62,614 nucleotides of DNA, taken from Lachnospiraceae bacterium. Lineage in GTDB: Bacteria; Bacillota; Clostridia; Lachnospirales; Bianqueaceae. The notes beneath the pieces are model-generated. The model made no database searches. It had not been told where the DNA came from and saw only the letters and a program-made list of their open reading frames with translations. Below are positions 1 through 13,096 of the stretch, piece after piece. The translations under genes and the position numbers were made by a program. Each line of letters starts with the position of its first letter. The stretch's first letter is position 1. The stretch is taken from contig JABUST010000218.1 in assembly GCA_021442595.1 (NCBI GenBank), positions 1 through 62,614 on the forward strand, in the 5' to 3' direction.

Positions 1-3
1 GCT

Positions 4-139
4 TTCGAACCATGCGAGTTTGCGCGGGTCGCAGATTCGTATGGTTCGAAATTCATGCCGCGCAAACAACGCGGGGCGTTTGAGAAGACGCATTTTTGAA
101 CTATGCAAGTTTGCGCGGTGCGTAAACCTGTATAGTTCG
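4..139. repeat. two nested inverted-repeat hairpins with an AGTTTGCGC-type inner core
   Basis: The perfect 10-bp outer stem ttcgaaccat (4-13) / atggttcgaa (41-50) encloses gcgagtttgcgcgg..cgcagattcg. A second outer stem gaactat (98-104) / atagttc (132-138) encloses caagtttgcgcggtgcgtaaacctg. The agtttgc..gcaaac theme recurs in the tRNA-Arg leaders at 47013-47188 and 48861-48983. Confidence 0.5.
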
Positions 140-162
140 CTTTTGAACTTAGTCTGTGAACC

Positions 163-223
163 TCTTTGCGGGGCCGAACCGGTGAGATTCCGGTACCGAC
201 GGTACAGTCCGGATGGGAAAAGA
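163..223 (+). promoter_or_regulatory. FMN (RFN) riboswitch-like element, atypically short
   Basis: The element tctttGCGGGGCcgaaCCGGTGAGATTCCGGTACCGACGGTACAGTCCGGATGGGaaaaga carries RFN signature strings (GGGGC, GGTGAnATTCC, ACCGACnGTA, AGTCnGGATGGGA). A P1-like pairing tcttt/aaaga closes it. It is followed by an intrinsic terminator and by ribU. Only one of the two pseudo-symmetric halves of a normal RFN aptamer is present. Confidence 0.5.
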
Positions 224-260
224 CGATCGATTCATATACAGGCTTTGCTCCTGATATAGA

Positions 261-299
261 AAGATCCCGAGGCTGATGTGTTAGCTTCGGGATTTTTCT
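261..299 (+). terminator. intrinsic terminator (likely expression platform of the upstream riboswitch-like element)
   Basis: An 11-bp stem atcccgaggct / agcttcgggat (one G-U pair) with loop gatgtgtt, followed by tttttct. Confidence 0.75.
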
Positions 300-381
300 A
301 TTATTCTGCTTCTGCGCAGTATTCGGGCATTTTTCCCGTTAACACTCTTATGGCAGAAGCCACATCGGAAAGGAGCATCAG

Positions 382-972
382 ATGAAATCTACCAAACACA
401 CCCGTATGATTGCAGGCTGCGGCATGCTGACAGCCGTCGCAGTGGTATTGCAGTACATTGAAATTGCCATCCCTCTTATGCCCAGCTTTGTTAAGCTGGA
501 CTTCTCTGACTTACCGGAGCTGATCGGCGCTTTTGCCTATGGTCCTTTAGCCGGGGCAGCCATCGCTGTTGTCAAAAATCTGATTCACGTGGTAGTCTCT
601 CAAAGTGCCGGTATCGGGGAACTCTCCAATGCTCTTCTGGGCATTGCCTTTGCTGTTTTTGCCGGTCTTGTTTACAAAATTAAGAAGACACGGAAAACCG
701 CCCTGTTGGCAGGATCCTGTGCCGCTGCTGTCATGGCTCTCGTCAGCTGGCCCCTCAACTATTTCATCATTTACCCTCTGTATTACAGTGTCATGGGCTT
801 TCCGGAGGTCGCCATTTTGGGCATGTATCAGGCACTGCTGCCCGCTGTAAGCAGTATCGCTCAGGCACTTTTGATCTTTAATGTTCCCTTCACCCTTGTC
901 AAAGGCCTCCTGTGTGTTGCCATTGCTATGGTCATATATAAGCCTTTGTCCCATGTGTTGAAGAAGAAGTGA
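382..972 (+). CDS. ribU: riboflavin transporter, ECF-type S component RibU
   Basis: A 196-aa polytopic membrane protein. The KLDFSDLPELIGAFAYGPLAGA motif is typical of RibU. It lies downstream of an RFN-like leader, and the RBS ggaaaggag precedes the ATG. Confidence 0.85.
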   Translation: MKSTKHTRMIAGCGMLTAVAVVLQYIEIAIPLMPSFVKLDFSDLPELIGAFAYGPLAGAAIAVVKNLIHVVVSQSAGIGELSNALLGIAFAVFAGLVYKIKKTRKTALLAGSCAAAVMALVSWPLNYFIIYPLYYSVMGFPEVAILGMYQALLPAVSSIAQALLIFNVPFTLVKGLLCVAIAMVIYKPLSHVLKKK

Positions 973-991
973 CTGCATCTATAAGACCTTG

Positions 992-1813
992 TCATTTCCA
1001 GTGAGGACATCTATCCTCAAGTTCTGCTTCTGAAATCATTTCTCTTGTCTCTAACAATTTGCTTTCCATTTTTTTCAATTCCAGTAATATTTCTTCCAAA
1101 GTCGATACTCCTATTGGCGGATAAACCTTTTCTCTCAACAACTCGAAAACCAGCATGTCTATGATATTTGCACTACTGGATAACTGCTTTCCAAACGTCT
1201 TTATTTTTGAAGCATCACATTGCTTCACCAGCCATTGTCCCAGCAAATGCCTCCTGCAGGCCAAATCGTTTAATTTCCATGTCAAAATATCTGCTTCCGA
1301 CTTATAGCTGAACTGTCTGCTTTTTCGTCCCAAGTCCCGATTATGAAATGTCACATACTCACGAAAACACTTAATAGCTTCAAGCCCACTAACTTCACAA
1401 ATGCCATCTGGTTGCGATGTTTCTGTCAACTCTCTTCCAAATCTCTTAACAAACAGATACGGGTACTCTCCTGCATAGAGAGGAATATCGGTGGATTTTT
1501 GATAAACAGACATTTCAAATTTCATTTGCAGCCCGCGATACAATTCTTCTTTTGTGATGAGTCCCAATTCATGATTCCTCTCATATGGAACAAAGCCTTT
1601 TGAATGTCTGCGAAGCGAATCAAAAAAAACATATCGGTCCCCAGTCTTTTTCAACAAAGCAAAGATATGACTTGTTGCTTTTTCATCAAGCATTTCTCTG
1701 GAATCGGCATCTAAGTCTGAAAAAGGCATCACCGGAAATATCGTACTAATGTAGACCTCCATCCCTGAACTTAGGAAATCATTCATCAATCCATATTCCC
1801 GTAATATCTCCAT
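992..1813 (-). CDS. hypothetical soluble protein, last gene of the RiPP-like operon
   Basis: A 273-aa ORF in the low-GC island, co-directional with the preceding ORF and overlapping it by 35 nt. It has no TM segments and no motif I recognise. The start is uncertain; alternative ATGs lie at 1786 and 1762. Confidence 0.55.
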   Translation of the reverse strand: MEILREYGLMNDFLSSGMEVYISTIFPVMPFSDLDADSREMLDEKATSHIFALLKKTGDRYVFFDSLRRHSKGFVPYERNHELGLITKEELYRGLQMKFEMSVYQKSTDIPLYAGEYPYLFVKRFGRELTETSQPDGICEVSGLEAIKCFREYVTFHNRDLGRKSRQFSYKSEADILTWKLNDLACRRHLLGQWLVKQCDASKIKTFGKQLSSSANIIDMLVFELLREKVYPPIGVSTLEEILLELKKMESKLLETREMISEAELEDRCPHWK

Positions 1814-2132
1814 CCTTATTTATCTCGTCATAAACGCCTTTGTCCGGCCAAACAATAATAATATCATTTGGCTGGCTGCTTATCTCAAATCGGTTCTCCC
1901 ATAAAACACATTCAATACTTATTGCAATTCCCAGATCTGCAAAAGACTCTTTTATCCCCCAGTAGTACCAGGCATCTGGTTCGGAGGATGAAACTAAAAA
2001 TACTCTTTTTTTCTCTTGGCATACTTCGGCTTTAATGTTGATATTTTCTATAAACCCCAGTAAAGGAGGAGATGTTATCGTAAGGTCGGATACGGCACTA
2101 ATCATCTTTATATTCTGATTACTTTCTGACAT
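1779..2132 (-). CDS. hypothetical small soluble protein in the RiPP-like operon
   Basis: A 117-aa ORF whose start overlaps the end of the upstream ABC gene by 25 nt, suggesting translational coupling. No recognisable motif and no TM segment. Confidence 0.5.
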   Translation of the reverse strand: MSESNQNIKMISAVSDLTITSPPLLGFIENINIKAEVCQEKKRVFLVSSSEPDAWYYWGIKESFADLGIAISIECVLWENRFEISSQPNDIIIVWPDKGVYDEINKDGDITGIWIDE

Positions 2133-3751
2133 GCCGAAAGCACCTGCTCATCGTGAGATATTATAAAAACAATAGTTCCGGTTTTCGCATCGTCGGATAA
2201 AGTCTCAAGAACATCGTTCTTCATTTCTTTATCCAGAGCCGAGAGAGATTCATCAAAAATCCTTATCCTCGCTGTTTTTATCAGAGCCCTCATGATGGAT
2301 AACAATTGTAATTCTCCTCCGGACAGACCTGACTCTCCTTCTCCGAGAACGCGCTCCGTTCCTCCAAGCATACCGATCCATCGTTCAAAAAGAGGATTAT
2401 CGTTTCTTTCCGACATATCCATGTCCAACAACAAATTTTCTTCAATTGTTCCGCCAATCCAAAAGGCTTCCTGCCCCACATAGGATATCAATTCCTGAAA
2501 ATCTGTACGGGAATAGTCGGAAATCTGATTACCAAATACAGAAAGCTCTCCCTCAAACGGATACAATCCCATCAACAGTTTCATCAATGTGCTTTTTCCT
2601 TTGCCGCTTTCTCCGGAGACTCCGTACAGACCGGGACCGGCAACACGGAGATTGATGCCATTAAGAATATCTTCTTCCGCCTTGGGATATGAAAAGCACA
2701 GGTCCTTCACAATAATACTATTATCTGTTTGTACTGATCTCTGCTTTGAAATATCCTCTCTCTCCTGAGGAAGCTCCAGTATTTCAATTACCCTTTTTAC
2801 GCCCACCCAGGACTCTGCTAATGCTTTATATACGTCCCCAAAAGAAATCAATGTATTCACAACCATACCCATCATGGGCAAGGCTACAAGGATTTCCGGA
2901 ATTGAAATATTCCCTCTCGAAAACCAGACTGCGCATATTGCAAGCCCGATTCCATATTGGGTCACTAACGGAGCCTTCCCCAACAGTGTGATTATTGAAT
3001 CTAAGCTGTCTTTTTTTAGCTCCATATCCATACAGACTTGATTACGCTCATCAATTTTATCTTGCAAATACTCTTCATGCCCACAAAGAAGAACACTTTC
3101 TTTTTTCTCAAGGCAGACATCCAAAAACTTGGTAATCTCCGATTTTGCGATAGAAATTCTATTCCTGAGGACTTCTATTCGTTTTGTAATGAGAGACATA
3201 CCTCCTAAAAACAGCAGCCCTGTTATGAATGAAACTCCCACCAGCATTCCTGTCTGATCTATAAAAAACAAACTAACGGCAGCAAGGATGCCCGAGAATG
3301 CACTCATTATCGGGGATAACACCTGATATCGAAGCACCCCGTGCACAAGATCCAAATCATTGTTCACCCGGGAGATATAATCAGCACGATCCGTTTCTCT
3401 TCCCAAATATCTCATGTCTGCATTCACAACACAATGAGTCATGGTTTTCCTGGTATGAGTAATCAATTGATGTGCTATAACATGAAGAAAGTACTGAGAC
3501 AACGCATCAAAAACACAAAACAAAATAATAGCTGCAGTAAGAGCAATCCAGCCTGATGCATTCTCTCCCACACCTGTCCCTTCTATCACCTGTCCGGCAA
3601 TCTTCGAGGAAAAAAAAGCATTTAAAAAGACTATCCCAAAATTCCTTAAGGATACTCCGGTAAGTGCGGAAATGTATTTTGTTCCGTATTTTCTCCAGAT
3701 ATTCCTGCTTCGTCGGATGTCTGAAACCATAGTTTTAAATGTTGATAACAT
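2108..3751 (-). CDS. ABC transporter, fused permease/ATP-binding half-transporter
   Basis: Has an N-terminal TM domain, Walker A GESGKGKST, signature LSGGELQ and Walker B RIFDESLSALD. I moved the start to ATG 3751 (MLSTF...) because the RBS aaaggaggg sits just upstream. The ORF-track start is 3811. Confidence 0.85.
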   Translation of the reverse strand: MLSTFKTMVSDIRRSRNIWRKYGTKYISALTGVSLRNFGIVFLNAFFSSKIAGQVIEGTGVGENASGWIALTAAIILFCVFDALSQYFLHVIAHQLITHTRKTMTHCVVNADMRYLGRETDRADYISRVNNDLDLVHGVLRYQVLSPIMSAFSGILAAVSLFFIDQTGMLVGVSFITGLLFLGGMSLITKRIEVLRNRISIAKSEITKFLDVCLEKKESVLLCGHEEYLQDKIDERNQVCMDMELKKDSLDSIITLLGKAPLVTQYGIGLAICAVWFSRGNISIPEILVALPMMGMVVNTLISFGDVYKALAESWVGVKRVIEILELPQEREDISKQRSVQTDNSIIVKDLCFSYPKAEEDILNGINLRVAGPGLYGVSGESGKGKSTLMKLLMGLYPFEGELSVFGNQISDYSRTDFQELISYVGQEAFWIGGTIEENLLLDMDMSERNDNPLFERWIGMLGGTERVLGEGESGLSGGELQLLSIMRALIKTARIRIFDESLSALDKEMKNDVLETLSDDAKTGTIVFIISHDEQVLSACQKVIRI

Positions 3752-5339
3752 ATCCATCCCTCCTTTCCAGATTCTCATGCGAGATAATAACCACAATATT
3801 GTCCCTTGCAAGTTCTGATAAATGGCTTAAGATAGTTTCTTTATTGTCTCCTCCAAATGAAGAAAACGGCTCATCATATAGGAAAATAAAAGCATTTTCT
3901 TTCATCCAGCTTCTGGCTATTGACAGCCGTTTTCTCTGTCCGCCTGACAATGGTTTTCCATTACTGTATAATTCTGTATTCAGCCCCGCCTCCAGCTTGT
4001 TTACTTCATTCAGCAGTCCAACTTCCTCTAAGAATATCCTTGCCTTCTTTTCTCCCAGGTCTGTGTGAGGTGTTTCCACAAACAAATTACCCAGGATCGT
4101 ATCAGGATAGATCAGATCATCCTGCGGGCATACTGAAACCCGATGTATCCATTCGCTGCGTTCAAGATTCTTCAGATTAATGTCATCCAGCATGACGTCC
4201 CCTGAATAATTTTGAAGCGATTTAGTCAATACTTTAAATAATGTACTCTTCCCTTTTCCGTTTTTCCCCTGAAGGTAATTAATCTTTCCTTTCCTGAAAA
4301 CAACTTGATCTACGAACACCACCTTCCCGTTACTGTATTCAATCTTTAGGTTGCTGATGCTAATAACATCCGGGCAGGCCTCCAACCCGGAATAACCATA
4401 ATCCATATTATCTTTCTTTGTGTTCTTGAAAAGGCTTTCTGCCCTATTTAAGCTTGCTTTAGCTCTTTGAAAACTGCTGATAGTTCCATCTAATGTCATT
4501 ACAAAGTCTTCTACAATATCAACTGTAAAGATGGTCAGAAGAAGGTCTGCGGTAGAAATCAATCCTTTTGCACGCAGCACACCTGCCATTCCTGCCATAC
4601 AAATCATCACTACAAAGCTGAACAAACACATGGGTCCGGATATCCATGCTTCTTTGGCAGCGGCTGTTTTATCTGCCTGGTTCAGCGTCTTCAGTTTTTT
4701 GTCATAACTATCTTCCAAAAGCTTTCTGTTCCGAAGCATTTTCAGCATTTCTATATTTCTCAGCCACCTCCCCTCCTCGCATAGTACGAGGTCAAGGACT
4801 TCATAGTATCCCGCGTAATAACCCGGGAGTTTTTTCCCTAAGAACATCAGATACAAAAATACTACCCCTGAGCAAACCACCACTGTCATTCCAAGAATCA
4901 CATGTCTCGAAAACAGAACACAAAGCACCAAACAATAACAAACTAAATTCGGAAAGAAAACACCCCAGAATCTTCTGAAGAATTTCACCAAATTGCTTGT
5001 GTCTACCTGTATTTTATTAATACTCGCCTCTTCATCCTTATTCTCAGCGCTGTATTCCAGAAGTTCTCGCTCTATCCTACTTTGCATGCTCCAGGAAAAC
5101 TCTGTTGCCTGCCGAAGCATAAGTCTGTTGCTCAAATATGAAAAAACAATATATGCTGTCATTATGCCAAGCATTTTGAAAATCCATTCTGTCCAGGCAT
5201 TTTGAATAAATGCTTCTTCCATCCCGGAAGCTGATAACCTCCAGAGAATAGAACAGATTGCACTCATACATGTCACGAAGCATAAAATCAGGTTCTTCCG
5301 TTGGTTCCCCATATAGACCAATACACTGTTTTTTCTCAT
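3735..5339 (-). CDS. ABC transporter, fused permease/ATP-binding half-transporter
   Basis: A 534-aa protein with a TM domain, Walker A GKNGKGKST, signature LSGGQRKRLSIARS and Walker B FLYDEPFSSF. Its start overlaps the stop of the upstream gene by 4 nt (ATGA). Confidence 0.85.
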   Translation of the reverse strand: MRKNSVLVYMGNQRKNLILCFVTCMSAICSILWRLSASGMEEAFIQNAWTEWIFKMLGIMTAYIVFSYLSNRLMLRQATEFSWSMQSRIERELLEYSAENKDEEASINKIQVDTSNLVKFFRRFWGVFFPNLVCYCLVLCVLFSRHVILGMTVVVCSGVVFLYLMFLGKKLPGYYAGYYEVLDLVLCEEGRWLRNIEMLKMLRNRKLLEDSYDKKLKTLNQADKTAAAKEAWISGPMCLFSFVVMICMAGMAGVLRAKGLISTADLLLTIFTVDIVEDFVMTLDGTISSFQRAKASLNRAESLFKNTKKDNMDYGYSGLEACPDVISISNLKIEYSNGKVVFVDQVVFRKGKINYLQGKNGKGKSTLFKVLTKSLQNYSGDVMLDDINLKNLERSEWIHRVSVCPQDDLIYPDTILGNLFVETPHTDLGEKKARIFLEEVGLLNEVNKLEAGLNTELYSNGKPLSGGQRKRLSIARSWMKENAFIFLYDEPFSSFGGDNKETILSHLSELARDNIVVIISHENLERRDGYVINI

Positions 5340-6196
5340 AACAGATACTCCTTGAAAAACTCCGTTGTTTGGGGTTCAAGTCTAAACGATAATTCCCTTA
5401 CCGGAATTGTTTTTGAAATCGTCTGCAGCAAATCAACAGATGTCAGAAGATTCTCGGCATGTCCATATGGCAGAAGCGATATTGTTAAGAGTTTCCGGCA
5501 TGCTTCCTCCTTTGAATACTGTTGCAAGACGTTATCCTTGCCATGTTTTAGCAAGATTATTTCATAAAGCCTTTCTTTTTGATTTTTACACTCATGATTC
5601 TTTCTGTCAAATGGATTTCCGTATATCCAAAGTTGGCCCTCTTCTTGTCTTATGATAATCCTGTCATCTGTCAGGAGACTAAATTCCTTATGCTTAATCA
5701 ACATTTGAGAAAGTGTCGTCTTTCCAACCCCGGAGGATCCCGTCAAAACAATGGCCCTCCCTTCATGGATTACCGTTGCGCCATGCATAATAAACCCTTT
5801 TTTCTTTTTATTCAGTTCCTGTTGCAGAATAAACCCGGTCATAGCAATTGGCAGAATCTGTGGGAAATACTCCTCCTGTGTCACATATGTTGTATATATG
5901 TAATCCTCTTTCGTGAAGCAAATCAAACCGATGAAATGTTCATCCGGATGAAATACGGCTGTAATTCTATTCCCTTTCTCATGCCAAGTCCAAGCAGGCG
6001 TATGATAAATTGCTTCTCCTTTATCATCCAAATCTATGGCATCGTTGATGTGAAATATGTGATTTATAATATCCGTACTGCTATTTGATATCAAGAAGTT
6101 ACGAATGGTACTTTCCTCAATGTAATCCATCTCAAAATGATACAAATACGCAAAGGATATGCCTGCAATTTCAAAATGAACTTCCTTATCCACCAT
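5336..6196 (-). CDS. HPr kinase-like (HprK C-terminal domain-like) P-loop protein
   Basis: The segment HGATVIHEGRAIVLTGSSGVGKTTLSQMLI...LLTDDRIII resembles the HprK/P catalytic core (HG..v...G.gvLi.G.SG.GKS...L...LvaDD). About 140 aa at the N-terminus have no feature I recognise. It overlaps the rSAM gene by 11 nt. Confidence 0.7.
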   Translation of the reverse strand: MVDKEVHFEIAGISFAYLYHFEMDYIEESTIRNFLISNSSTDIINHIFHINDAIDLDDKGEAIYHTPAWTWHEKGNRITAVFHPDEHFIGLICFTKEDYIYTTYVTQEEYFPQILPIAMTGFILQQELNKKKKGFIMHGATVIHEGRAIVLTGSSGVGKTTLSQMLIKHKEFSLLTDDRIIIRQEEGQLWIYGNPFDRKNHECKNQKERLYEIILLKHGKDNVLQQYSKEEACRKLLTISLLPYGHAENLLTSVDLLQTISKTIPVRELSFRLEPQTTEFFKEYLL

Positions 6197-7238
6197 AGCT
6201 CACCTTCACCCCCTGTACATACTTTTTTAACTTTTGGGCATAGCTGCAGGCCCACTCCGGTGGATTTTTTGTGGACAGACCTTCTGCCTCAAACCGACCC
6301 GGACAATATCGACAAAACGGTCGTTCCTCACAATCATAACATTGATCTGCCGGCGTTAATGTCCCTTCTTTATACATTGCTAGAGCCTGGGCCGCCTGTT
6401 TCAATGATGTCTCTTCGGTGATTTGATATCCCGGTGTACGCACCGCAACACATAAACCTGCTCGCAAAGAAGCGTCGATAAATAGAGATGTTTCACCTGC
6501 ATCACAAGTATATTTTTCGTTAGTTCTATCCATCGGGATATTGCTGCGTAGTTTTTCAATATAATGCTCATTTTCGCACACCAACTTCACTGCTTCCAAA
6601 CTGCTTACCTGAAAGCTCTGCGAATTGACAGATGTTCTGTCTATGCAAGGAATCACTAATGTATCATATCGAAACGGCACATGATGTTGCTTGGAAAATT
6701 CCAAGTAATCGGATAGTCGTTCACTTTCTGTTGTAATTGTAGTCTTTAGGGTATAAGCTATATGGTTTTCATCTAACTGCTCCAGTACTCTTGAAAAATG
6801 ATCAAACGCCCCCTTCCGTTGGACAATTGCATCATATGCGTCCGCCGTCGTCCCATATAAGGTTATTTCCAGTGCATACGGAGGGTTTTTCTTCCACTCA
6901 TCAATCCATTTCTCAGAAATCAAAGAGCCATTTGTAAATACTGAAACAAAGGGAATCTTTTGTTTTGCGTATCTGTAAAACCAAAGAAACTCCGGATGAG
7001 ATAGTGGTTCTCCACCACTTAATGTAAGATAAAGAACTCCTTCCTGCTGCATCTTATCAACACACAGGGTAAACTTCTCCTTCGATATTACTTTTCCAAG
7101 ATCAGAATGGATATAGCAATACGGACAATCATAATTACACCGCTCTGTTACCTCAAGGTGCACATCAAGAATCTTGTGCTCGAAGTTCGCGTGTAGTAGT
7201 TCCCTAAATTCTCCTTTCCCCATGTTCCTATAAATCAT
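6186..7238 (-). CDS. radical SAM / SPASM-domain peptide-modifying enzyme
   Basis: The CNYDCPYC motif (C34-x3-C38-x2-C41) is a radical SAM cluster site. The C-terminal Cys-rich region CDAGETSLFIDASLRAGLC ... CYDCEERPFCRYC ... EWAC is SPASM-like with 7 Cys. A GGEPL motif is present. The RBS gggag lies 9 nt upstream of the ATG. Confidence 0.9.
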   Translation of the reverse strand: MIYRNMGKGEFRELLHANFEHKILDVHLEVTERCNYDCPYCYIHSDLGKVISKEKFTLCVDKMQQEGVLYLTLSGGEPLSHPEFLWFYRYAKQKIPFVSVFTNGSLISEKWIDEWKKNPPYALEITLYGTTADAYDAIVQRKGAFDHFSRVLEQLDENHIAYTLKTTITTESERLSDYLEFSKQHHVPFRYDTLVIPCIDRTSVNSQSFQVSSLEAVKLVCENEHYIEKLRSNIPMDRTNEKYTCDAGETSLFIDASLRAGLCVAVRTPGYQITEETSLKQAAQALAMYKEGTLTPADQCYDCEERPFCRYCPGRFEAEGLSTKNPPEWACSYAQKLKKYVQGVKVSYGG

Positions 7239-7300
7239 TGTTGATCACTCCCAGTTTTAATAAAGAGGTCAAAAATTCATTTATATCCTCCTCGGATAAG

Positions 7301-7321
7301 GTCTGCCCTTAGGGCAGACCT
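7301..7321 (-). promoter_or_regulatory. perfect stem-loop between the precursor ORF and the rSAM gene (attenuator or processing hairpin)
   Basis: On the minus strand, ggtctgccc-taa-gggcagacc forms a 9-bp GC-rich stem. It starts 10 nt after the peptide stop codon and has no following U-run. Confidence 0.6.
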
Positions 7322-7330
7322 TTGAACACT

Positions 7331-7435
7331 TCAACAAGATGATGGAACTGCTCGCCAACAGCCTAATGAAATTGTCTCATCTGCAACCAGTTCGATAATT
7401 TCTATGGTCGGCTTTTCATATACCTTTTTTTCCAT
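7331..7435 (-). CDS. candidate RiPP precursor peptide (34 aa), not in the ORF track
   Basis: My own translation of the minus strand gives atg gaa aaa aag gta tat ... tct tgt tga = MEKKVYEKPTIEIIELVADETISLGCWRAVPSSC. The RBS gaggagga ends about 10 nt upstream. The ORF lies directly upstream of the rSAM/SPASM gene. It has an acidic leader-like N-terminus and a Cys/Trp-containing C-terminus. Confidence 0.6.
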   Translation of the reverse strand: MEKKVYEKPTIEIIELVADETISLGCWRAVPSSC

Positions 7436-7461
7436 GAATCATGTTCCTCCTCTCTGAAAAA

Positions 7462-8274
7462 TTAACAATGACTATTATTGTCATCACTGTTTTTCCTTTT
7501 CCTGATGCTTTTATATAGATTCTCCCTCATATCAGATGTAAGCTCATCTTTGAGAATACAAAAAATCTGATTTGCTTTATCAAGATACCGTGAATCCTTT
7601 CGGATTTCATACAAAACCAGCAAATGCTTGATTATCGCCCATGAGACCGGATTTATAGAAGATGCTGCTATCTTTTCTTTGTCTTCCGGTGTCTGAGATA
7701 AAAACAACATGGCATTTTCTCGTGTTTTATAATACCCCGGTAACTTTACCGCATACTCCATAGCTTCTTGCATCCTTCCCAATTTTGCAAGCGAAAAGCA
7801 CAGATTGTATCGTGCACAATAAACCTGTTCAGGATCTTGAGATTCATTAATCACTATTTTCTGAAGCATTATGGATTCTTTTAGGTATTTCTCCGCTTCA
7901 ACCGTACCATCCCCCATGTATTCCAATGTTGCCGCAAGATACAAAAACAAGGCATAATCCTTCGGATGATTTTTAATCGCTTTACGAAGAAGGGCTTCAT
8001 TTTCCGCATGGAATCCCTTCTTATTGTTCTCCTCCCATGTGCATACTACACTGTTTATTTCATCAGCAGATGGATCTTCTATTCCAAGCAAATAATCTGT
8101 CGTAACTCCAAAATATCTGGCCAGAGCAATTATCATCTGCACGTCCGGAAAACCTTCACCTCTTTCCCACTTACTGATAACTTGAAAAGAACAGTTAACA
8201 ACCATCGCCAACTGCTCCTGTGTCATTTTTCTTTCTTTTCTAAGGTTTCGCAGCAATAAACCAAATTCAGACAT
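7462..8274 (-). CDS. XRE-family HTH transcriptional regulator with TPR-like C-terminal domain
   Basis: The N-terminal LRNLRKERKMTQEQLAMVVNCSFQVISKWERGEGFPDVQMIIALARYFGVTTDYLLG is a classic HTH_3 motif. About 200 aa of helical repeat-like sequence follow. The RBS ggaggga lies upstream. Confidence 0.8.
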   Translation of the reverse strand: MSEFGLLLRNLRKERKMTQEQLAMVVNCSFQVISKWERGEGFPDVQMIIALARYFGVTTDYLLGIEDPSADEINSVVCTWEENNKKGFHAENEALLRKAIKNHPKDYALFLYLAATLEYMGDGTVEAEKYLKESIMLQKIVINESQDPEQVYCARYNLCFSLAKLGRMQEAMEYAVKLPGYYKTRENAMLFLSQTPEDKEKIAASSINPVSWAIIKHLLVLYEIRKDSRYLDKANQIFCILKDELTSDMRENLYKSIRKRKNSDDNNSHC

Positions 8275-8382
8275 TTATTCCCATCCCTCCAAACAGCGCA
8301 TGCAGTTTCTGATTTCTGCTGATTTCTTCTTCCCCTATGATTCCCTTAACCAATCCCGGCAGCAGCTGGTTATCCACTCATT

Positions 8383-8826
8383 CTAAGAATGGAATTGTCC
8401 ATGTCCACCTCTGAGAAAGCCCAAAACACTCACCCTCTTCTTGCTAAATGGGGGAATCTGGTGAGAATACAGAGCGCACATCACTTCTTCCTCCCTGCAT
8501 AGATGCCTTTGTGAAAATCCGTGTCGTTTAAGAACATCCGCTAAAAAGCACGTATCCTTTTTATTGATCAACACATCAATATCTCCCGTATGCCGGCATC
8601 CTTCCTTTCCATAAGCAAGAACAGATAGTACCTCTCCCTTAATTATGGCATAGGGCTTGGCAAAATCTCGTTCCAAAATTGGAATCAGATAGTTGTATTG
8701 AATGGCAGAAGCCAATACTCGAATGTCATTCCATTGCATTTTCTTCAAATACTCGAACCAATTTTTCAATATAGTTACAGCTGCGTTTAAATCACGACAA
8801 CAATACCCTATGTGATGTAACTGCAT
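8383..8826 (-). pseudogene. possible truncated nucleotidyltransferase-family ORF (N-terminal part only)
   Basis: A 147-aa ORF containing KGEVLSVLAYG...RHTGDIDVLINKKD, reminiscent of the uncharacterised nucleotidyltransferase family. From memory, that family is usually more than 300 aa. Only about 100 nt remain before the next gene. Confidence 0.4.
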
Positions 8827-9023
8827 TCCGCATATTCTCCTTTTCCTTTCCCGTAGCGTATCATTATTACAAGGTCTTTGTCAAATGAAATAAATAATCT
8901 TTTTTTCCTATGTCGTTTAGCTGTCTCTACATGGTAGAGAATAACGCAAACTCTTCCTGATAAATACGCCGGAAGGGCTTATAAAAACAACTTTATTCGT
9001 TCTCCCAAGGAAAGCTTCTCTCC

Positions 9024-10394
9024 TCACATAGATGCCCTTGTAATATTCTTAATCCAATTGAATCTGTTAACCTTCACTGCGGCCACGATACACTTCAGCA
9101 GCTGGTCGCATTTCAGGCAGGCAAATACCACCCAGGCAGGGGCATCAAATACAAAAGCCGCCAGCAGCCCGGAGGGAATCAGCACACAGCATACAAATAT
9201 GGTGTCATTGATAAAAACAAAATTCGTCTGTCCACCCGCACGGACAATACCCGTCAAGGAGCTCATCTGGTAGGAGGTTCCCACCACCATTACCGTCAGC
9301 ACAGAAATCAGCTGGTTCACGATGACTGTCGTCTCACCGTTGATGGTAGGATACAGCGCCGGCACCAGATACCGGCTCAAATACATAAACACGGCAGTTC
9401 CCAATCCCATGGCCACAAACACAAGCTGCAGGGTCTTCGCATACTTTTTCACCAGTTCATAATCGCCGCTGCCCACCGTCTTTCCGATGATGATGCCGGT
9501 GGCGCTGGCCACTCCGTACACACCCACGGAAATCAAATTAAACAGGTTGTTGGCGATGCTCACTGCCGAGATAGCGCTCTGGCTCAGCCGCCCCAGAATA
9601 GCCGCCTGTCCGGTCATATTCAGCCCCCATACCGCTGACCCTGCAAAAATGGGCAGCCCGTACTTGATATAATCCTTCATCAGCACCCCGGAATGCCGCT
9701 TCAGGTCGCCGAACTTCATACGCAGCTTGGTATCCTTCTTCGCCGCAAACACGATGACGACGCAGCTTTCCACGATACGGCACAGCAGTGTGGAGACGGC
9801 AGCGCCGGCCACCCCCATGGCGGGAACCCCCAGCTTACCGAAAATGAAGACCCAGTTAAAGAAGATATTCAGCAGCACCGTAATCACAGACGTGTAGAGG
9901 GCGATGCCCACCGTCTCCACGCACTTCATGCTGGTCAGAACTACCTCCGTGACCACATAGAACAAATAGGAAAAGCATACGATCCTTAGATATCCGGTTC
10001 CTTCCCGAATGACCTCCTGCTCGTTGGTGTAGAGGCTCAGCAGCTGATTCGGAAAGAAAAATGCTGCGGCAAAAAAGCCCAGAGCCACCACCCCTGCAAA
10101 CCGGGCAGTCATGGCAGTGATGGTCTTGATGCTGTCCGTATCTTTTCTTCCCCAGTACTGAGCGGCCAGAACCAGCGCTGCGGTGCAGAAGCCCTGTATA
10201 AATTTCTGCAGCAGCGTCATCCACTGGTTGGCCACATAGACACCGGAAAGCGCCAGGTCACTGACACTTCCCACCATAATGTTGTCCGTCAGGCCCACCG
10301 CATAGACCAAAATATTCTGACCTGCCAGGGGCAGGGCCAGAGCAAAGAGCCGCTGATAAAACTTTTTGTCCTTGACTAACCAATCTGTTTTCAT
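9024..10394 (-). CDS. MATE family efflux transporter
   Basis: A 456-aa protein with 12 TM-like segments and a typical MATE N-terminus (FYQRLFALALPLAGQNILVYAVGLTDNIMVG). Confidence 0.9.
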   Translation of the reverse strand: MKTDWLVKDKKFYQRLFALALPLAGQNILVYAVGLTDNIMVGSVSDLALSGVYVANQWMTLLQKFIQGFCTAALVLAAQYWGRKDTDSIKTITAMTARFAGVVALGFFAAAFFFPNQLLSLYTNEQEVIREGTGYLRIVCFSYLFYVVTEVVLTSMKCVETVGIALYTSVITVLLNIFFNWVFIFGKLGVPAMGVAGAAVSTLLCRIVESCVVIVFAAKKDTKLRMKFGDLKRHSGVLMKDYIKYGLPIFAGSAVWGLNMTGQAAILGRLSQSAISAVSIANNLFNLISVGVYGVASATGIIIGKTVGSGDYELVKKYAKTLQLVFVAMGLGTAVFMYLSRYLVPALYPTINGETTVIVNQLISVLTVMVVGTSYQMSSLTGIVRAGGQTNFVFINDTIFVCCVLIPSGLLAAFVFDAPAWVVFACLKCDQLLKCIVAAVKVNRFNWIKNITRASM

Positions 10395-10475
10395 GAGATC
10401 CTCCGATAAACAGCGCCGGTCTCAAAGTTAAGACCGGCGCTTCATTTTTTCTCTTATTTAGCTCTTATTTAGTTC

Positions 10476-11498
10476 TTAGCGGTTGACCAGCTCATATCCG
10501 GCCATGAGCATTTCCTTGCCAAAGTGGATCAAACCTCCCTCAAAATCCTGTTGGGCGTGGTCGCTGATGACCAGCTCGGGAATGACATCCTTCGGAAGAA
10601 ATCTCTCGCACAGATCCTTTACCTCCTCCAGCACATCCTCCGTTCCGGGATGCTTGTAAAACACAATGACCCGTGGATCCACGGTACAGGTGATGGCCGC
10701 CACCATTTGGGCGATCTCCACCGGGGTGGCTCCTCCGTTGGAGCTCAGGCGGGAATCAAAGGTGGCATCATAACTGACAGGCAGGTGGCGCATCTCGCCG
10801 GCAAAGCCGTGAAATCCGCGAATCACATGTCCCCGCAGATACAACCCGCAGCCCAGGCCTCTTCTGCCCACGTTCACACACACCATGGAATCGTTCTTTT
10901 CCCTAATCATGCGGTTATAGCAGCCCACCACCATGGAATTCATATCGTTCTCCACCCTGGTGCGGATGCCGAACTTCGCCTCCAGATGCTCCTGGAGCGG
11001 AAAGTCCTTCAGGGAAGGATCGCTGAAATCCGCGCAGAAGGCGATTCTTCCTTTTGAAATACCGAAGGGCAGTCCGATGGCAAGGGCTTTGATGGGATAC
11101 TCATCCACCAGCTCCTCCACCACATGGTCGATGGTATCCACCAGCACATACAGACTTTTCAGGGGATAATCCTTGTCCCGGACCTTTTCCCCGTGAGTAT
11201 TTCTAACCAAAGTCCTCAGTGTGCCGGGCTTGGAGATAAATATGCAAAGATAATAGGCAAAATCCGGATTCACAATGTAAGACATGGCATGACGCCCACC
11301 GGTGGTGGGATCTACACCGTTGCGCAAAATCTCTCCGGTTGCCAGCATATCATCCACAATGCGGCTCACGGTGGGAAAGCTGAGATCCGTCAGATGAGCA
11401 ATTCTTGTTTTTGTAAATGGATTCTCCTCCCGAATGGCCCTGCGGATATTGCTTTCATTGATATTTTTAACTACAGACTTTTTACCGAATTCCGCCAT
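10476..11498 (-). CDS. ROK family transcriptional regulator
   Basis: Has an N-terminal winged HTH (TKTRIAHLTDLSFPTVSRIVDDML) and a ROK sugar-kinase-like fold with GCGLYLRGHVIRGFHGFAGEMRHL. Confidence 0.85.
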   Translation of the reverse strand: MAEFGKKSVVKNINESNIRRAIREENPFTKTRIAHLTDLSFPTVSRIVDDMLATGEILRNGVDPTTGGRHAMSYIVNPDFAYYLCIFISKPGTLRTLVRNTHGEKVRDKDYPLKSLYVLVDTIDHVVEELVDEYPIKALAIGLPFGISKGRIAFCADFSDPSLKDFPLQEHLEAKFGIRTRVENDMNSMVVGCYNRMIREKNDSMVCVNVGRRGLGCGLYLRGHVIRGFHGFAGEMRHLPVSYDATFDSRLSSNGGATPVEIAQMVAAITCTVDPRVIVFYKHPGTEDVLEEVKDLCERFLPKDVIPELVISDHAQQDFEGGLIHFGKEMLMAGYELVNR

Positions 11499-11629
11499 AC
11501 TTTTTAAAGCTCCTTTGGAAAATTGCCTAATTTTAGCATGCCTGTATTTCTATTTCAAGTAAAGTGATTCTGTTTTCCCTTGAAATATCGCATTTTCTCT
11601 GTAAATAAGATATCAAAGAGATGCTGTCA

Positions 11630-13096
11630 TTACAGTAATCCCATTTTAATTTTCAGCAGCAGAACCCTCAGGACGGATGCATCCAGCCGCTCCTGAGAGA
11701 TGACTCCCTCCTGCACAGCCTCCAGCACCGCCTCATACTGGGTGATGTAGCTGCTGGAGATCAGCATATCGTTGCCGGCCAGCACCGCCAGCACCGCCGC
11801 CTCCCCGCATCCGTAATAGTCCACGATGGCGCCCATGGCCAGATCATCGGTCATGAGAACCCCCTCATATCCCAGCTCCCGGGCCACCTCATGCACCTCA
11901 GGCGATAGGGACGCCGGATACTCACTGTCGAAGCAGGTCACGATGTTGTGGCACACCAGAACGGAGTCCGCTCCCGCCTCCATGCCCGCCATAAAGGGAA
12001 TGAGTGCGTCAGCATAGAATTCGTCGGCGCTGCGTTCGTCCACGGACATGCCCACATGGGTGTCCAGATTGCTGCCGTAGCCGGGGAAATGCTTCAGGGA
12101 AGAGGCCACACCGTACTCCTGCATGATGGTCAGAGTGCGAAGAATAAACTCGCTTGTCAGCTCCGGATCGTCGCTGAAGGCCCGGTAATACATGAACTCT
12201 TCCTCGCTGCCGGCCATATCCGCCACCGGGGTGAGGTTCATGTTCAGGTGAAGAGACAGCAAAAGCTCACACTTCTCCCGGGTCTCTGCCTCCAGGGCTT
12301 CAAACCCGCCTATGCTGTACAGATAGCGGGGAGAGTAGAACCGGTTCTCCCTGTAATGGGTGCTGACCCGGCAGACGGAGCCTCCCTCTTCATCCACGGA
12401 CATGAGCATGGGAATGGCGCAGGCCTCCTGACATTCGTCAATGACCGCCCGGACCTCATCCATGGAATATCCGTCGAATTCCTCATCAAACAGCACATAG
12501 CCCCCCAAACAGTAGGCCCTGGCATCCTCAGCCGCATCGTAATAAGATGGAAATCTGGCCATGAACATCTGGCCCACCTTCTCCTCTATGCTCAGCCCTG
12601 CCAGGATGTCCTTGGCCCTTTGCAGCATATCTGAGGTGACGCCTTCTCCCGGTGTGAAGTCCGGTGCTTTGCCGGGGTCGGGGGTTTCAGCGGATGCATC
12701 CCGGGATTCAGAAGCGTCTGCCGTCTCCGGGGCATCTGAGCTCTCTTCCGGTGAAGCTGCGTCATCATGTTGATTCATTACGCCGGATTCATTGCTGTCA
12801 CCGGACTCCTCAGAGGAAGCCCCATCTATGCTTTCCCCGGATTCCATGGGCTTCAGGCCACTGTCCCGGTTTCTGTCGCTGATCTCCCTACCCGGGTCAA
12901 ATTCTTTTCCGGAGTGGGAATTCCCGGAAGCTTCGCTTTGTGCGCCGTTCGGGGAGGAGCTGCCGGATTGTGCCTTTTTGTCTGAACTCCACAGGGAGCA
13001 GCCGGACAAAAGGGACATTATCAATAATATGCTTATCAAGCGGAAAAGGCCCGACCTTTCGGTCGGACCTTTCGGGAATCGTGTATTATTCTTCAC
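11630..13096 (-). CDS. glycoside hydrolase family 3 lipoprotein (beta-N-acetylhexosaminidase/NagZ-like)
   Basis: Has a lipobox LLSGC, a Ser/Asp/Glu-rich linker, and GH3 motifs EEKVGQMFM, DEEGGSVCRV, KHFPGYG and MTDDLAMGA. Confidence 0.85.
   Translation of the reverse strand: MKNNTRFPKGPTERSGLFRLISILLIMSLLSGCSLWSSDKKAQSGSSSPNGAQSEASGNSHSGKEFDPGREISDRNRDSGLKPMESGESIDGASSEESGDSNESGVMNQHDDAASPEESSDAPETADASESRDASAETPDPGKAPDFTPGEGVTSDMLQRAKDILAGLSIEEKVGQMFMARFPSYYDAAEDARAYCLGGYVLFDEEFDGYSMDEVRAVIDECQEACAIPMLMSVDEEGGSVCRVSTHYRENRFYSPRYLYSIGGFEALEAETREKCELLLSLHLNMNLTPVADMAGSEEEFMYYRAFSDDPELTSEFILRTLTIMQEYGVASSLKHFPGYGSNLDTHVGMSVDERSADEFYADALIPFMAGMEAGADSVLVCHNIVTCFDSEYPASLSPEVHEVARELGYEGVLMTDDLAMGAIVDYYGCGEAAVLAVLAGNDMLISSSYITQYEAVLEAVQEGVISQERLDASVLRVLLLKIKMGLL

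Follow-up and report, generated by a model that had tools for sequence, protein, structure and literature searches.

A Rare Composite Radical SAM Peptide Gene Cluster, Probably Surviving as an Eroded Copy in a Lachnospiraceae Genome

Introduction

The sactipeptide and ranthipeptide systems (AlbA, SkfB, PapB and CteB types) combine a SPASM-type radical S-adenosylmethionine (rSAM) enzyme with a short cysteine-containing precursor, a PqqD-type element and dedicated ATP-binding cassette (ABC) export. Here we examine a locus of the same general composition, at positions 992–8826 of a contig from a Lachnospiraceae bacterium (JABUST010000218.1, assembly GCA_021442595.1; its first 62,614 nucleotides are called the window below). 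We will argue that the gene cluster found here, composite in make-up and belonging to an uncharacterized and very rare family, is quite probably an eroded copy. The family is in our reading a novel and chemically intriguing rSAM system for peptides made by the ribosome and then modified post-translationally (RiPPs), equipped with a RiPP recognition element (RRE), while the copy in the window appears to be a decaying relic of it.

The family differs from the sactipeptide and ranthipeptide systems in several respects. Its rSAM enzymes score far under the curated cut-offs (43–74 bits against 340 for PapB, 49 against 850 for AlbA), its RRE is a separate gene rather than an N-terminal fusion, and is deleted in the window, and its core peptide carries two cysteines and an invariant tryptophan. 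It also includes an attached carrier-protein module and an HprK-like protein. P-loop proteins of the HprK type are paired with rSAM/SPASM enzymes in the SynChlorMet cassette (ScmC with ScmE/ScmF), in the HprK-related kinase A/B families and in GeoRSP as well. These are bioinformatic definitions in NCBIfam and Pfam and are uncharacterized, but they mean that the pairing, part of a combination that an initial annotation made from the DNA sequence alone did not recognize from any characterized RiPP class, is already catalogued. The match is again distant, with 15 bits against 125 for ScmC (TIGR04249), 34 against 200 for HprK_rel_A, 39 against 400 for ScmE and 53 against 400 for GeoRSP_rSAM, and the precursor and accessory genes differ. 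Nor is the rSAM partner of the ScmE/ScmF type in the related locus L037 (62 and 55 bits, respectively, against 400). Related loci are referred to by such L numbers throughout.

HPr-kinase homologues phosphorylate the C-terminal serine of lasso precursors, and a nucleotidyltransferase decorates the phosphate (PMC8498205). With the phosphorylated lasso peptides paeninodin and pseudomycoidin, the present locus has in common an HprK-like gene, which co-occurs with an NTP_transf_5 relic and with an invariant serine near the C-terminus. In contrast to those systems, the present cluster has neither a lasso cyclase nor a B1/B2 protease, the main modifier would be the radical SAM enzyme, and the kinase and its target residue are putative.

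[quoted passage not shown] A ligase family represented in the window by a fragment shares with CtaG (closthioamide), CcbD (celesticetin/lincosamide) and the BtrH-type ligases the fold (Foldseek E 5e-6, TM score up to 0.66), the triad, the same 16-residue spacing between His and Asp, and an adjoining acyl carrier protein (ACP) gene. The sequence identity is, however, only about 10%, the genes are here joined to a ribosomal-peptide cluster, and the window copy lacks the Cys-bearing N-terminus. Finally, the biosynthesis of pyrroloquinoline quinone (PQQ; PqqA, PqqD and PqqE) resembles loci L001, L037 and L038 in its small precursor, stand-alone PqqD chaperone and SPASM radical SAM enzyme, but PqqE gives 41 bits against 381, the precursor is unrelated, and PqqB and PqqC are missing here. 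Literature searches on the precursor motif, on SynChlorMet and on the combination of a RiPP with FkbH and a CtaG-like ligase found no relevant description.

The Precursor Peptide and Its Lost Recognition Gene

The open reading frame (ORF) at 7331–7435 on the minus strand, the strand of all cluster genes in the window, has 34 codons and encodes MEKKVYEKPTIEIIELVADETISLGCWRAVPSSC. Homologues were found in five other loci, all metagenomic (L001/L002, L037, L038, L049 and L052), with lengths in the family of 33–37 residues. In the alignment of the six precursors, 11 positions are the same in all (Y6, P9, E20, T21, I22, S23, C26, W27, P31, S32 and C34), the last being followed by the stop codon. 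The resulting pattern is Y-x-(K/A)-P in the leader and ETIS-x-x-CW-x3-PS-x-C-stop in the core; the core stretch in the window, LGCWRAVPSSC, contains both cysteines and the invariant tryptophan. At the nucleotide level, the window gene is 78% identical to that of L037. The leader has a Y-x-K-P-hydrophobic pattern, presumably that of sactipeptide and ranthipeptide leaders. When a degenerate DNA pattern of the peptide core was searched over the JGI metagenomes, four matches were obtained, two of which are family members (L049 and L052) and two chance occurrences. Judged by this conservation beside an rSAM/SPASM maturase, which is far beyond chance, the ORF is a genuine RiPP-type precursor. The initial annotation had made its RiPP proposal depend on a small ORF being conserved in homologous operons; since this is what we find, the proposal survives its own test.

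Directly past the precursor stop there is a stable hairpin of 11 bp (7299–7321, fold z-score −3.65). A hairpin is present at the same place in L001, L037, L038 and L049, although the one in the window lacks the downstream T-run seen in L001.

In L001/L002, L037 and L038, a PqqD gene of 94–101 codons is located between the precursor and the rSAM gene, and in L052 a 96-residue PqqD gene comes directly after the precursor, whereupon the contig ends. At the L001 junction, as read, the PqqD stop overlaps the rSAM start. In the window, the gap between the precursor and the rSAM gene is only 92 nt. One frame of it (7228–7299) reads LSEEDINEFLTSLLKLGVINNDL followed by a stop codon, which corresponds to the last 23 codons and last helix of PqqD (compare the end of the L001 protein, VEFINSLLELGVLEYE and stop) and likewise overlaps the rSAM start. 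A hidden Markov model (HMM) made from four PqqD proteins was run on the six-frame translation of the whole 62.6 kb; the stub was its top match in the window (HMM positions 75–94 of 96), and no intact PqqD was found there. Compared with L037 and L001, DNA alignment shows that ca 260 nt are absent. Some 72–78 upstream codons of the PqqD gene are deleted. The deletion begins right past the precursor hairpin and has taken the T-run with it, while the ribosome-binding site and start codon of the rSAM gene outlast it.

A leader-recognition element, fused or discrete, is thus lacking from the window, although L001, L037, L038 and L052 have one. That every related locus with the rSAM gene also has a PqqD gene, and that the window retains a 23-codon stub of it, argues that the missing recognition domain is a lesion and not a feature of the design, as had first been assumed.

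Two further observations concern these genes. In L049, the family precursor (7488–7595, MQENKQYTKPVVLVVKLEPEETISLACWRASPSSC) is an orphan, with no PqqD or rSAM gene in the 1.4 kb downstream. Beside it, at 2186–6771, are genes for an AMP-dependent ligase, an ACP, a class-II aminoacyl-tRNA synthetase-like protein and two unknown proteins, which places a precursor once more in a carrier-protein context; the contig starts with what by eye is likely a transposase gene. The neighbouring 378- and 299-residue proteins were considered as members of the ligase family and rejected, as they do not match the ligase profile. In the window itself, the plus strand at 8945–9028, which separates the chimeric ORF described below from a MatE gene, reads KLFLINTPEGLIKTTLFVL and resembles PqqD residues 24–43 of L038/L052. 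The HMM E-value is 0.22 and the pairwise score is matched by 0–1 of 5000 shuffles. The segment may be what is left of an inverted PqqD gene, or a product of chance.

The Radical SAM Enzyme and the Other Core Proteins

The rSAM gene (6186–7238, 350 residues) is intact. Its product has a clear Radical_SAM match (E 3.8e-17), the CX3CX2C motif at residues 34–41 (C34/C38/C41) and a SPASM-type C-terminal domain with seven cysteines (C245, C263, C300-x2-C303-x5-C309-x2-C312 and C331). Of the earlier rSAM/SPASM domain call, the first part is thus borne out by HMM, whereas the SPASM part is made on the cysteine motif, the SPASM models of Pfam and NCBIfam giving no match at E<0.01.

The enzyme has very few relatives. 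Among 5.8 billion clustered proteins, only eight besides itself were found at E<=1e-5, the closest (44% identity) being on the metagenomic contigs L001 and L002. A scan of the 185,579 GTDB species-representative genomes with the rSAM alignment yielded distant rSAM proteins only (22–39% identity over partial lengths) and no family member, but it did not recover the genome of the window either. The top NCBIfam scores are 43–65 bits against cut-offs of 265–850 (43 for PapB, 49 for AlbA, and 46 against 625 for StsB), and for the L037 orthologue the best family is PapB, at 74.5 bits against 340. A search of solved structures returned only generic radical SAM core matches, to viperin and SkfB. Since the enzyme is far under all curated maturase cut-offs, no characterized family includes it. 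This supports the initial annotation of an uncharacterized RiPP-like operon, the maturase corresponding to none of those curated or characterized.

Some more distant proteins deserve mention. In L007 (266–2032), a 588-residue relative with 28% identity has an rSAM core, a PqqD-like N-terminal extension (by eye) and a C-terminal GNAT acetyltransferase domain (weak Pfam matches). In L003 (8989–19198) and L004 (5836–16000), and also in L005 and L006, a distant ScmC-like/rSAM pair, with 29% identity to the window rSAM enzyme, is found directly upstream of a Big_3/Flg_new surface protein of 2,000–2,600 residues; no PqqD was called there and the precursor motif has no match.

The next gene (5336–6196, intact) encodes a P-loop protein of the ScmC family with an HprK/PEPCK fold, a putative peptide kinase. 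Its matches to Hpr_kinase_C (E 2.2e-6, 27.7 bits, cut-off 33.3) and to HprK-related kinase A/B (E 1.6e-8 and 4.8e-8) are all under the curated cut-offs. A 99.7% identical protein, P0010, has precomputed matches to PF27840 (ScmC) and PF07475, the former of which is also found on the L001 homologue. Foldseek matches the AlphaFold2 model (pLDDT 84) to PEPCK and to the C-domain of HprK/P. The family motif HG..V..G.SGVGK[ST]T..(5-10)..DDR is conserved (GSSGVGKTT..LLTDDR), and the protein thus combines the HprK C-domain fold, the Walker A sequence GxSGxGKS/T and the downstream DD motif.

Both ABC half-transporters (3735–5339, and 2108–3751 with the longest ORF starting at 3811) are intact and have ABC_membrane and ABC_tran matches, i.e. 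a transmembrane and a nucleotide-binding domain without a peptidase domain. The first has the same length as its L037 orthologue (534 residues), and the L037 counterpart of the second has 538. Upstream of the precursor, also intact, is an XRE-family helix-turn-helix (HTH) regulator (7462–8274), which matches HTH_3 (E 1.9e-15) and, weakly, TPR_17, and whose C-terminal domain is helical. Homologues of the regulator head the L001, L002 and L037 clusters. Pfam and NCBIfam back the XRE, HprK-like and ABC assignments of the initial annotation, the HprK signal being weak.

A contig from an independent metagenome, L041 (ERZ3979741), is 99.4% identical to window positions 4955–6758, which means that the same cluster is present in another sample. 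It covers the rSAM/ScmC/ABC1 part and includes no deletion junction. A selection test on this pair was discarded as uninformative: most of the 10 mismatches are A>C or G>T changes, the L041 contig has 2x coverage, and the differences resemble sequencing error.

Remnants of a Carrier-Protein Module

We now consider the two ends of the cluster. The last two ORFs had been described as soluble proteins of unknown type, but they can be assigned to fragments of an FkbH-domain protein and of a CtaG/CcbD-like ligase. The 117-residue ORF (1779–2132) corresponds to the N-terminal domain of FkbH-domain proteins of ca 490 residues (residues 22–95, hhalign probability 95%, E 2.8e-8; tblastn E 2.9e-5). About 95–97 residues' worth of that protein is retained, while the HAD-IIIC/FkbH catalytic domain (TIGR01686), for which the full-length L037 protein passes the cut-off of 147 bits with 169, has been deleted.

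When 1.84 billion representatives were searched exhaustively by HMMER with the 273-residue ORF (992–1813), just nine proteins were found. Full-length relatives have 337–357 residues, and the window ORF aligns only from about family residue 88–93, leaving the C-terminal three-quarters of the family length. Of the conserved residues Cys25, Asp27, His132 and Asp148, the fragment keeps the His and the second Asp, but Cys25 and Asp27 are gone along with the N-terminal 85–92 residues, of which tblastn found no relic upstream in the window DNA. An AlphaFold2 model of a full-length family member (pLDDT 88.8) has the bipartite papain-like fold over its full length and matches CtaG and CcbD along the whole chain (E 5e-6 to 3e-4, TM score 0.55–0.66). 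The N-terminal catalytic Cys of these enzymes (C11 in CtaG, C19 in CcbD), which acts with His and Asp, is thus without a counterpart in the window ORF. Another option considered was that the two ORFs are a single gene split by a frameshift. This was rejected, since the 117-residue ORF is unlike the ligase N-terminus and matches FkbH N-domains. An FkbH stub followed by the C-terminal part of a ligase points instead to a single deletion, from about FkbH residue 97 to about ligase residue 88.

At the other end, the 147-residue ORF at 8383–8826 is, according to the alignments, a chimera of a VOC N-terminus and an internally deleted, frameshifted NTP_transf_5 nucleotidyltransferase (NTase). The first ca 34 codons (8725–8826) are a VOC/Glyoxalase_4 relic, residues 1–30 (MQLHHIGY..NAAV) aligning to residues 1–30 of the L047 Glyoxalase_4 protein with a score of 51 that none of 5000 shuffles reaches. 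Fused in frame to it, residues 35–130 (8437–8724) correspond to residues ca 7–102 of NTP_transf_5 (PF14907), with 42% identity to L047 (E 3e-28), a tblastn match at 8724–8437 and a Pfam E-value of 3.5e-8. The NTase C-terminus (residues ca 244–306) follows at 8437–8282 in a different frame (tblastn E 1e-3 and 3e-4; VDNQLLPG..EEE..FG vs VDNPKLPE..EEE..FG). An in-frame TGA interrupts it at a position that is Arg in the relatives, and it ends with a stop overlapping the start codon of the XRE gene. The window has lost the remainder of VOC, the entire ACP gene and ca 140 internal NTase codons.

The corresponding genes occur in other settings. L001/L002 have the order XRE regulator, 37-residue ORF, PqqD, rSAM, ScmC/HprK-like protein, ABC. 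L037, found through the P-loop protein, is complete and continues from XRE, a 33-residue ORF, PqqD, rSAM, ScmC-like protein and two ABC genes to a 355-residue protein, an ACP and an FkbH-domain protein. In this locus, ligase, ACP and FkbH come directly after the second ABC gene and are on its strand. L038, found in the same way, is a variant with the ACP alone from the module and with an additional HemN-like rSAM enzyme and a formyltransferase; genes for these two are found just upstream of the precursor both in L038 (310–1937) and in L052 (1627–3287). L047, from the same sample as L001, has VOC-ACP-NTase-FkbH-ligase whole. An ECF S-component gene convergent with the ligase gene is shared by the window and L047, but orthology is not claimed on this basis, as the ECF proteins are 27% identical and the other flanks differ. 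A conserved four-gene cassette of ACP, NTP_transf_5, FkbH-like protein (ca 490 residues) and CtaG/CcbD-like ligase (ca 350 residues) is furthermore present in L042 (4567–8322), L045 (3942–7597), L046 (565–4173), L043 and L044. It is located between spoVT and hbs/yabO/yabP/yabQ/divIC/spoIIE on several metagenomic Firmicutes contigs, with neither a radical SAM gene nor a precursor in its vicinity.

Reconstruction, Proposed Mechanism and Alternatives

With the relics included, the order in the window is VOC' - (ACP lost) - 'NTase' - XRE - precursor - 'PqqD - rSAM - ScmC-like - ABC - ABC - FkbH' - 'ligase. Because the NTase relic extends onto the XRE start, and because the stop of the second ABC gene is overlapped by the FkbH stub, we place the peptide core between NTase and FkbH in an ancestral composite operon. 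The ancestral order was probably VOC-ACP-NTase-XRE-peptide-PqqD-rSAM-kinase-ABC-ABC-FkbH-ligase, and, as we read the DNA, this operon was later hit by four internal deletions and one nonsense mutation.

In the intact family, the leader would be bound by the discrete PqqD-type recognition protein, as in PqqD-dependent SPASM enzymes. The SPASM rSAM enzyme would cross-link the core, most likely by a thioether from Cys26 or Cys34 or by a cross-link at Trp27, if the analogy with related enzymes holds. Phosphorylation of the peptide may be the task of the ScmC-family protein, with the invariant Ser32 (position −3) as one candidate site; this residue, taken together with the NTP_transf_5 gene, makes a lasso-like phosphate step plausible. 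The carrier-protein module joined to the peptide core would consist of the ACP, the FkbH loader, the papain-fold ligase, the nucleotidyltransferase and the VOC protein, of which the first three would load and transfer a small acyl unit, probably resulting in an acyl or glyceryl-type decoration. The product would be exported by the two ABC half-transporters, with the XRE–HTH protein regulating the operon.

The window and L037 each have the module in an operon with the peptide core, but in a different gene order, and this argues for a functional link between module and core. The most far-reaching proposal is that the intact family, best seen in L037 and ancestral to the window copy, constitutes a new hybrid class, in which the peptide is cross-linked by the rSAM enzyme, phosphorylated by the HprK-like protein and then acylated by the CtaG-like ligase with a glyceryl-type unit bound to the FkbH-loaded ACP; the NTP_transf_5 enzyme may further decorate the phosphate. 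We put this forward tentatively, as a possible but rather unlikely outcome. Should it be true, the family would unite HprK-type phosphorylation and thiotemplated acyl transfer of the CtaG type with the chemistry of ribosomal peptides, a combination of which the literature searched gave no description. In a weaker version, the eroded copy in the window would still yield a simpler cross-linked peptide without any recognition protein.

As PqqD, VOC, ACP, NTase, FkbH and ligase have all been destroyed, the window copy most likely gives no mature product, or at best an undecorated and poorly processed one. With the RRE gone, the first step is probably crippled, and the module for acylation is dead. 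The earlier expectation that this copy yields a new product is therefore doubtful.

Several points weigh against our reading of an eroded copy. Six core genes are full-length with conserved motifs, and some function may persist. Another part of the genome, of which 62.6 kb are covered here, could provide the RRE, or the rSAM enzyme might act without one. The carrier-protein module also occurs alone and precursor-free between spoVT and hbs; this means, on the one hand, that it can work independently and, on the other, that its link to the peptide is one of co-location (operonic in the window and L037, with the ACP alone in L038). Moreover, the family is known from a handful of metagenomic contigs.

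The alternative that survives best, although we consider it improbable, is close to the initial annotation. The operon would be streamlined and working, its core still making and exporting a modified peptide, with the RRE unneeded or acting in trans and the truncated ORFs dispensable or repurposed. The core ORFs are indeed of full length with all catalytic motifs, the ribosome-binding site and start codon of the rSAM gene survive the deletion, the post-precursor hairpin, being without a T-run, could raise read-through, and L041 shows a nearly identical fragment in an independent metagenome. However, each related locus with the rSAM gene keeps a PqqD gene, which at the junction read (L001) overlaps it, and the 62.6 kb of the window contain none; the ligase fragment is without its conserved Cys, the FkbH fragment is without the entire HAD/FkbH domain, and the NTase is both frameshifted and interrupted by a stop codon.

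It is very improbable that the locus is not concerned with RiPP maturation at all, i.e. that the rSAM/ScmC pair has some other substrate, such as a surface protein or a small molecule, and the small ORF is only a signalling pheromone or a leader for the XRE regulator. The regulator does have an architecture of HTH and helical repeats, and the distant pair in L003–L006 stands beside Big_3/Flg_new surface proteins. But precursor, PqqD and rSAM are contiguous in L001/L002, L037 and L038 (the L052 contig ends after PqqD), and having an invariant Cys/Trp/Ser core beside an RRE-equipped SPASM enzyme is standard for RiPP clusters. The Y-x-K-P-hydrophobic leader pattern also speaks against this alternative.

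Least credible of all is that the deletions come from mis-assembly and the real genome holds the intact composite cluster: the assembly is a single one and L041 spans none of the junctions, but there are four separate junctions, each with in-register relics and coherent frames, and a point nonsense codon besides, and collapse artefacts normally require repeats, none of which flank the junctions.

With eight rSAM relatives and nine ligase members, the family is so rare that ordinary genome mining would miss it. For the product, an L037-type cluster is the one to clone, not the window copy; the latter is a natural test of whether the discrete PqqD is essential. A translationally coupled, tidy-looking operon can, moreover, be a mosaic of whole genes and in-frame gene fragments.

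Genomic Context

All minus-strand ORFs of the initial annotation were reproduced at their coordinates, and their order, the overlaps of 4 to 35 nt and the low-GC island are all confirmed by our ORF list and GC profile. From the rSAM gene to the 273-residue ORF, the successive overlaps are 11, 4, 17, 25 and 35 nt. The compact operon thus stands as regards order and overlaps, but several of its members are gene fragments and the recognition gene is lost. The island (1001–9000) has a GC fraction of 0.38–0.42, against 0.49–0.57 on either side, and its neighbours are ordinary chromosomal genes (ECF S component, MatE, ROK and GH3). Searches at the island ends for boundary repeats, integrase genes and tRNA-like features found none, the Rfam scan of 1–12000 gave no match, and the promoter and terminator scans gave counts not above those of shuffled sequence. 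At 3–139, a 46-nt element occurs twice, the copies being 76% identical and 91 nt apart; each is an imperfect palindrome matching no Rfam family, and the pair is located upstream of the ECF S-component gene (382–972).

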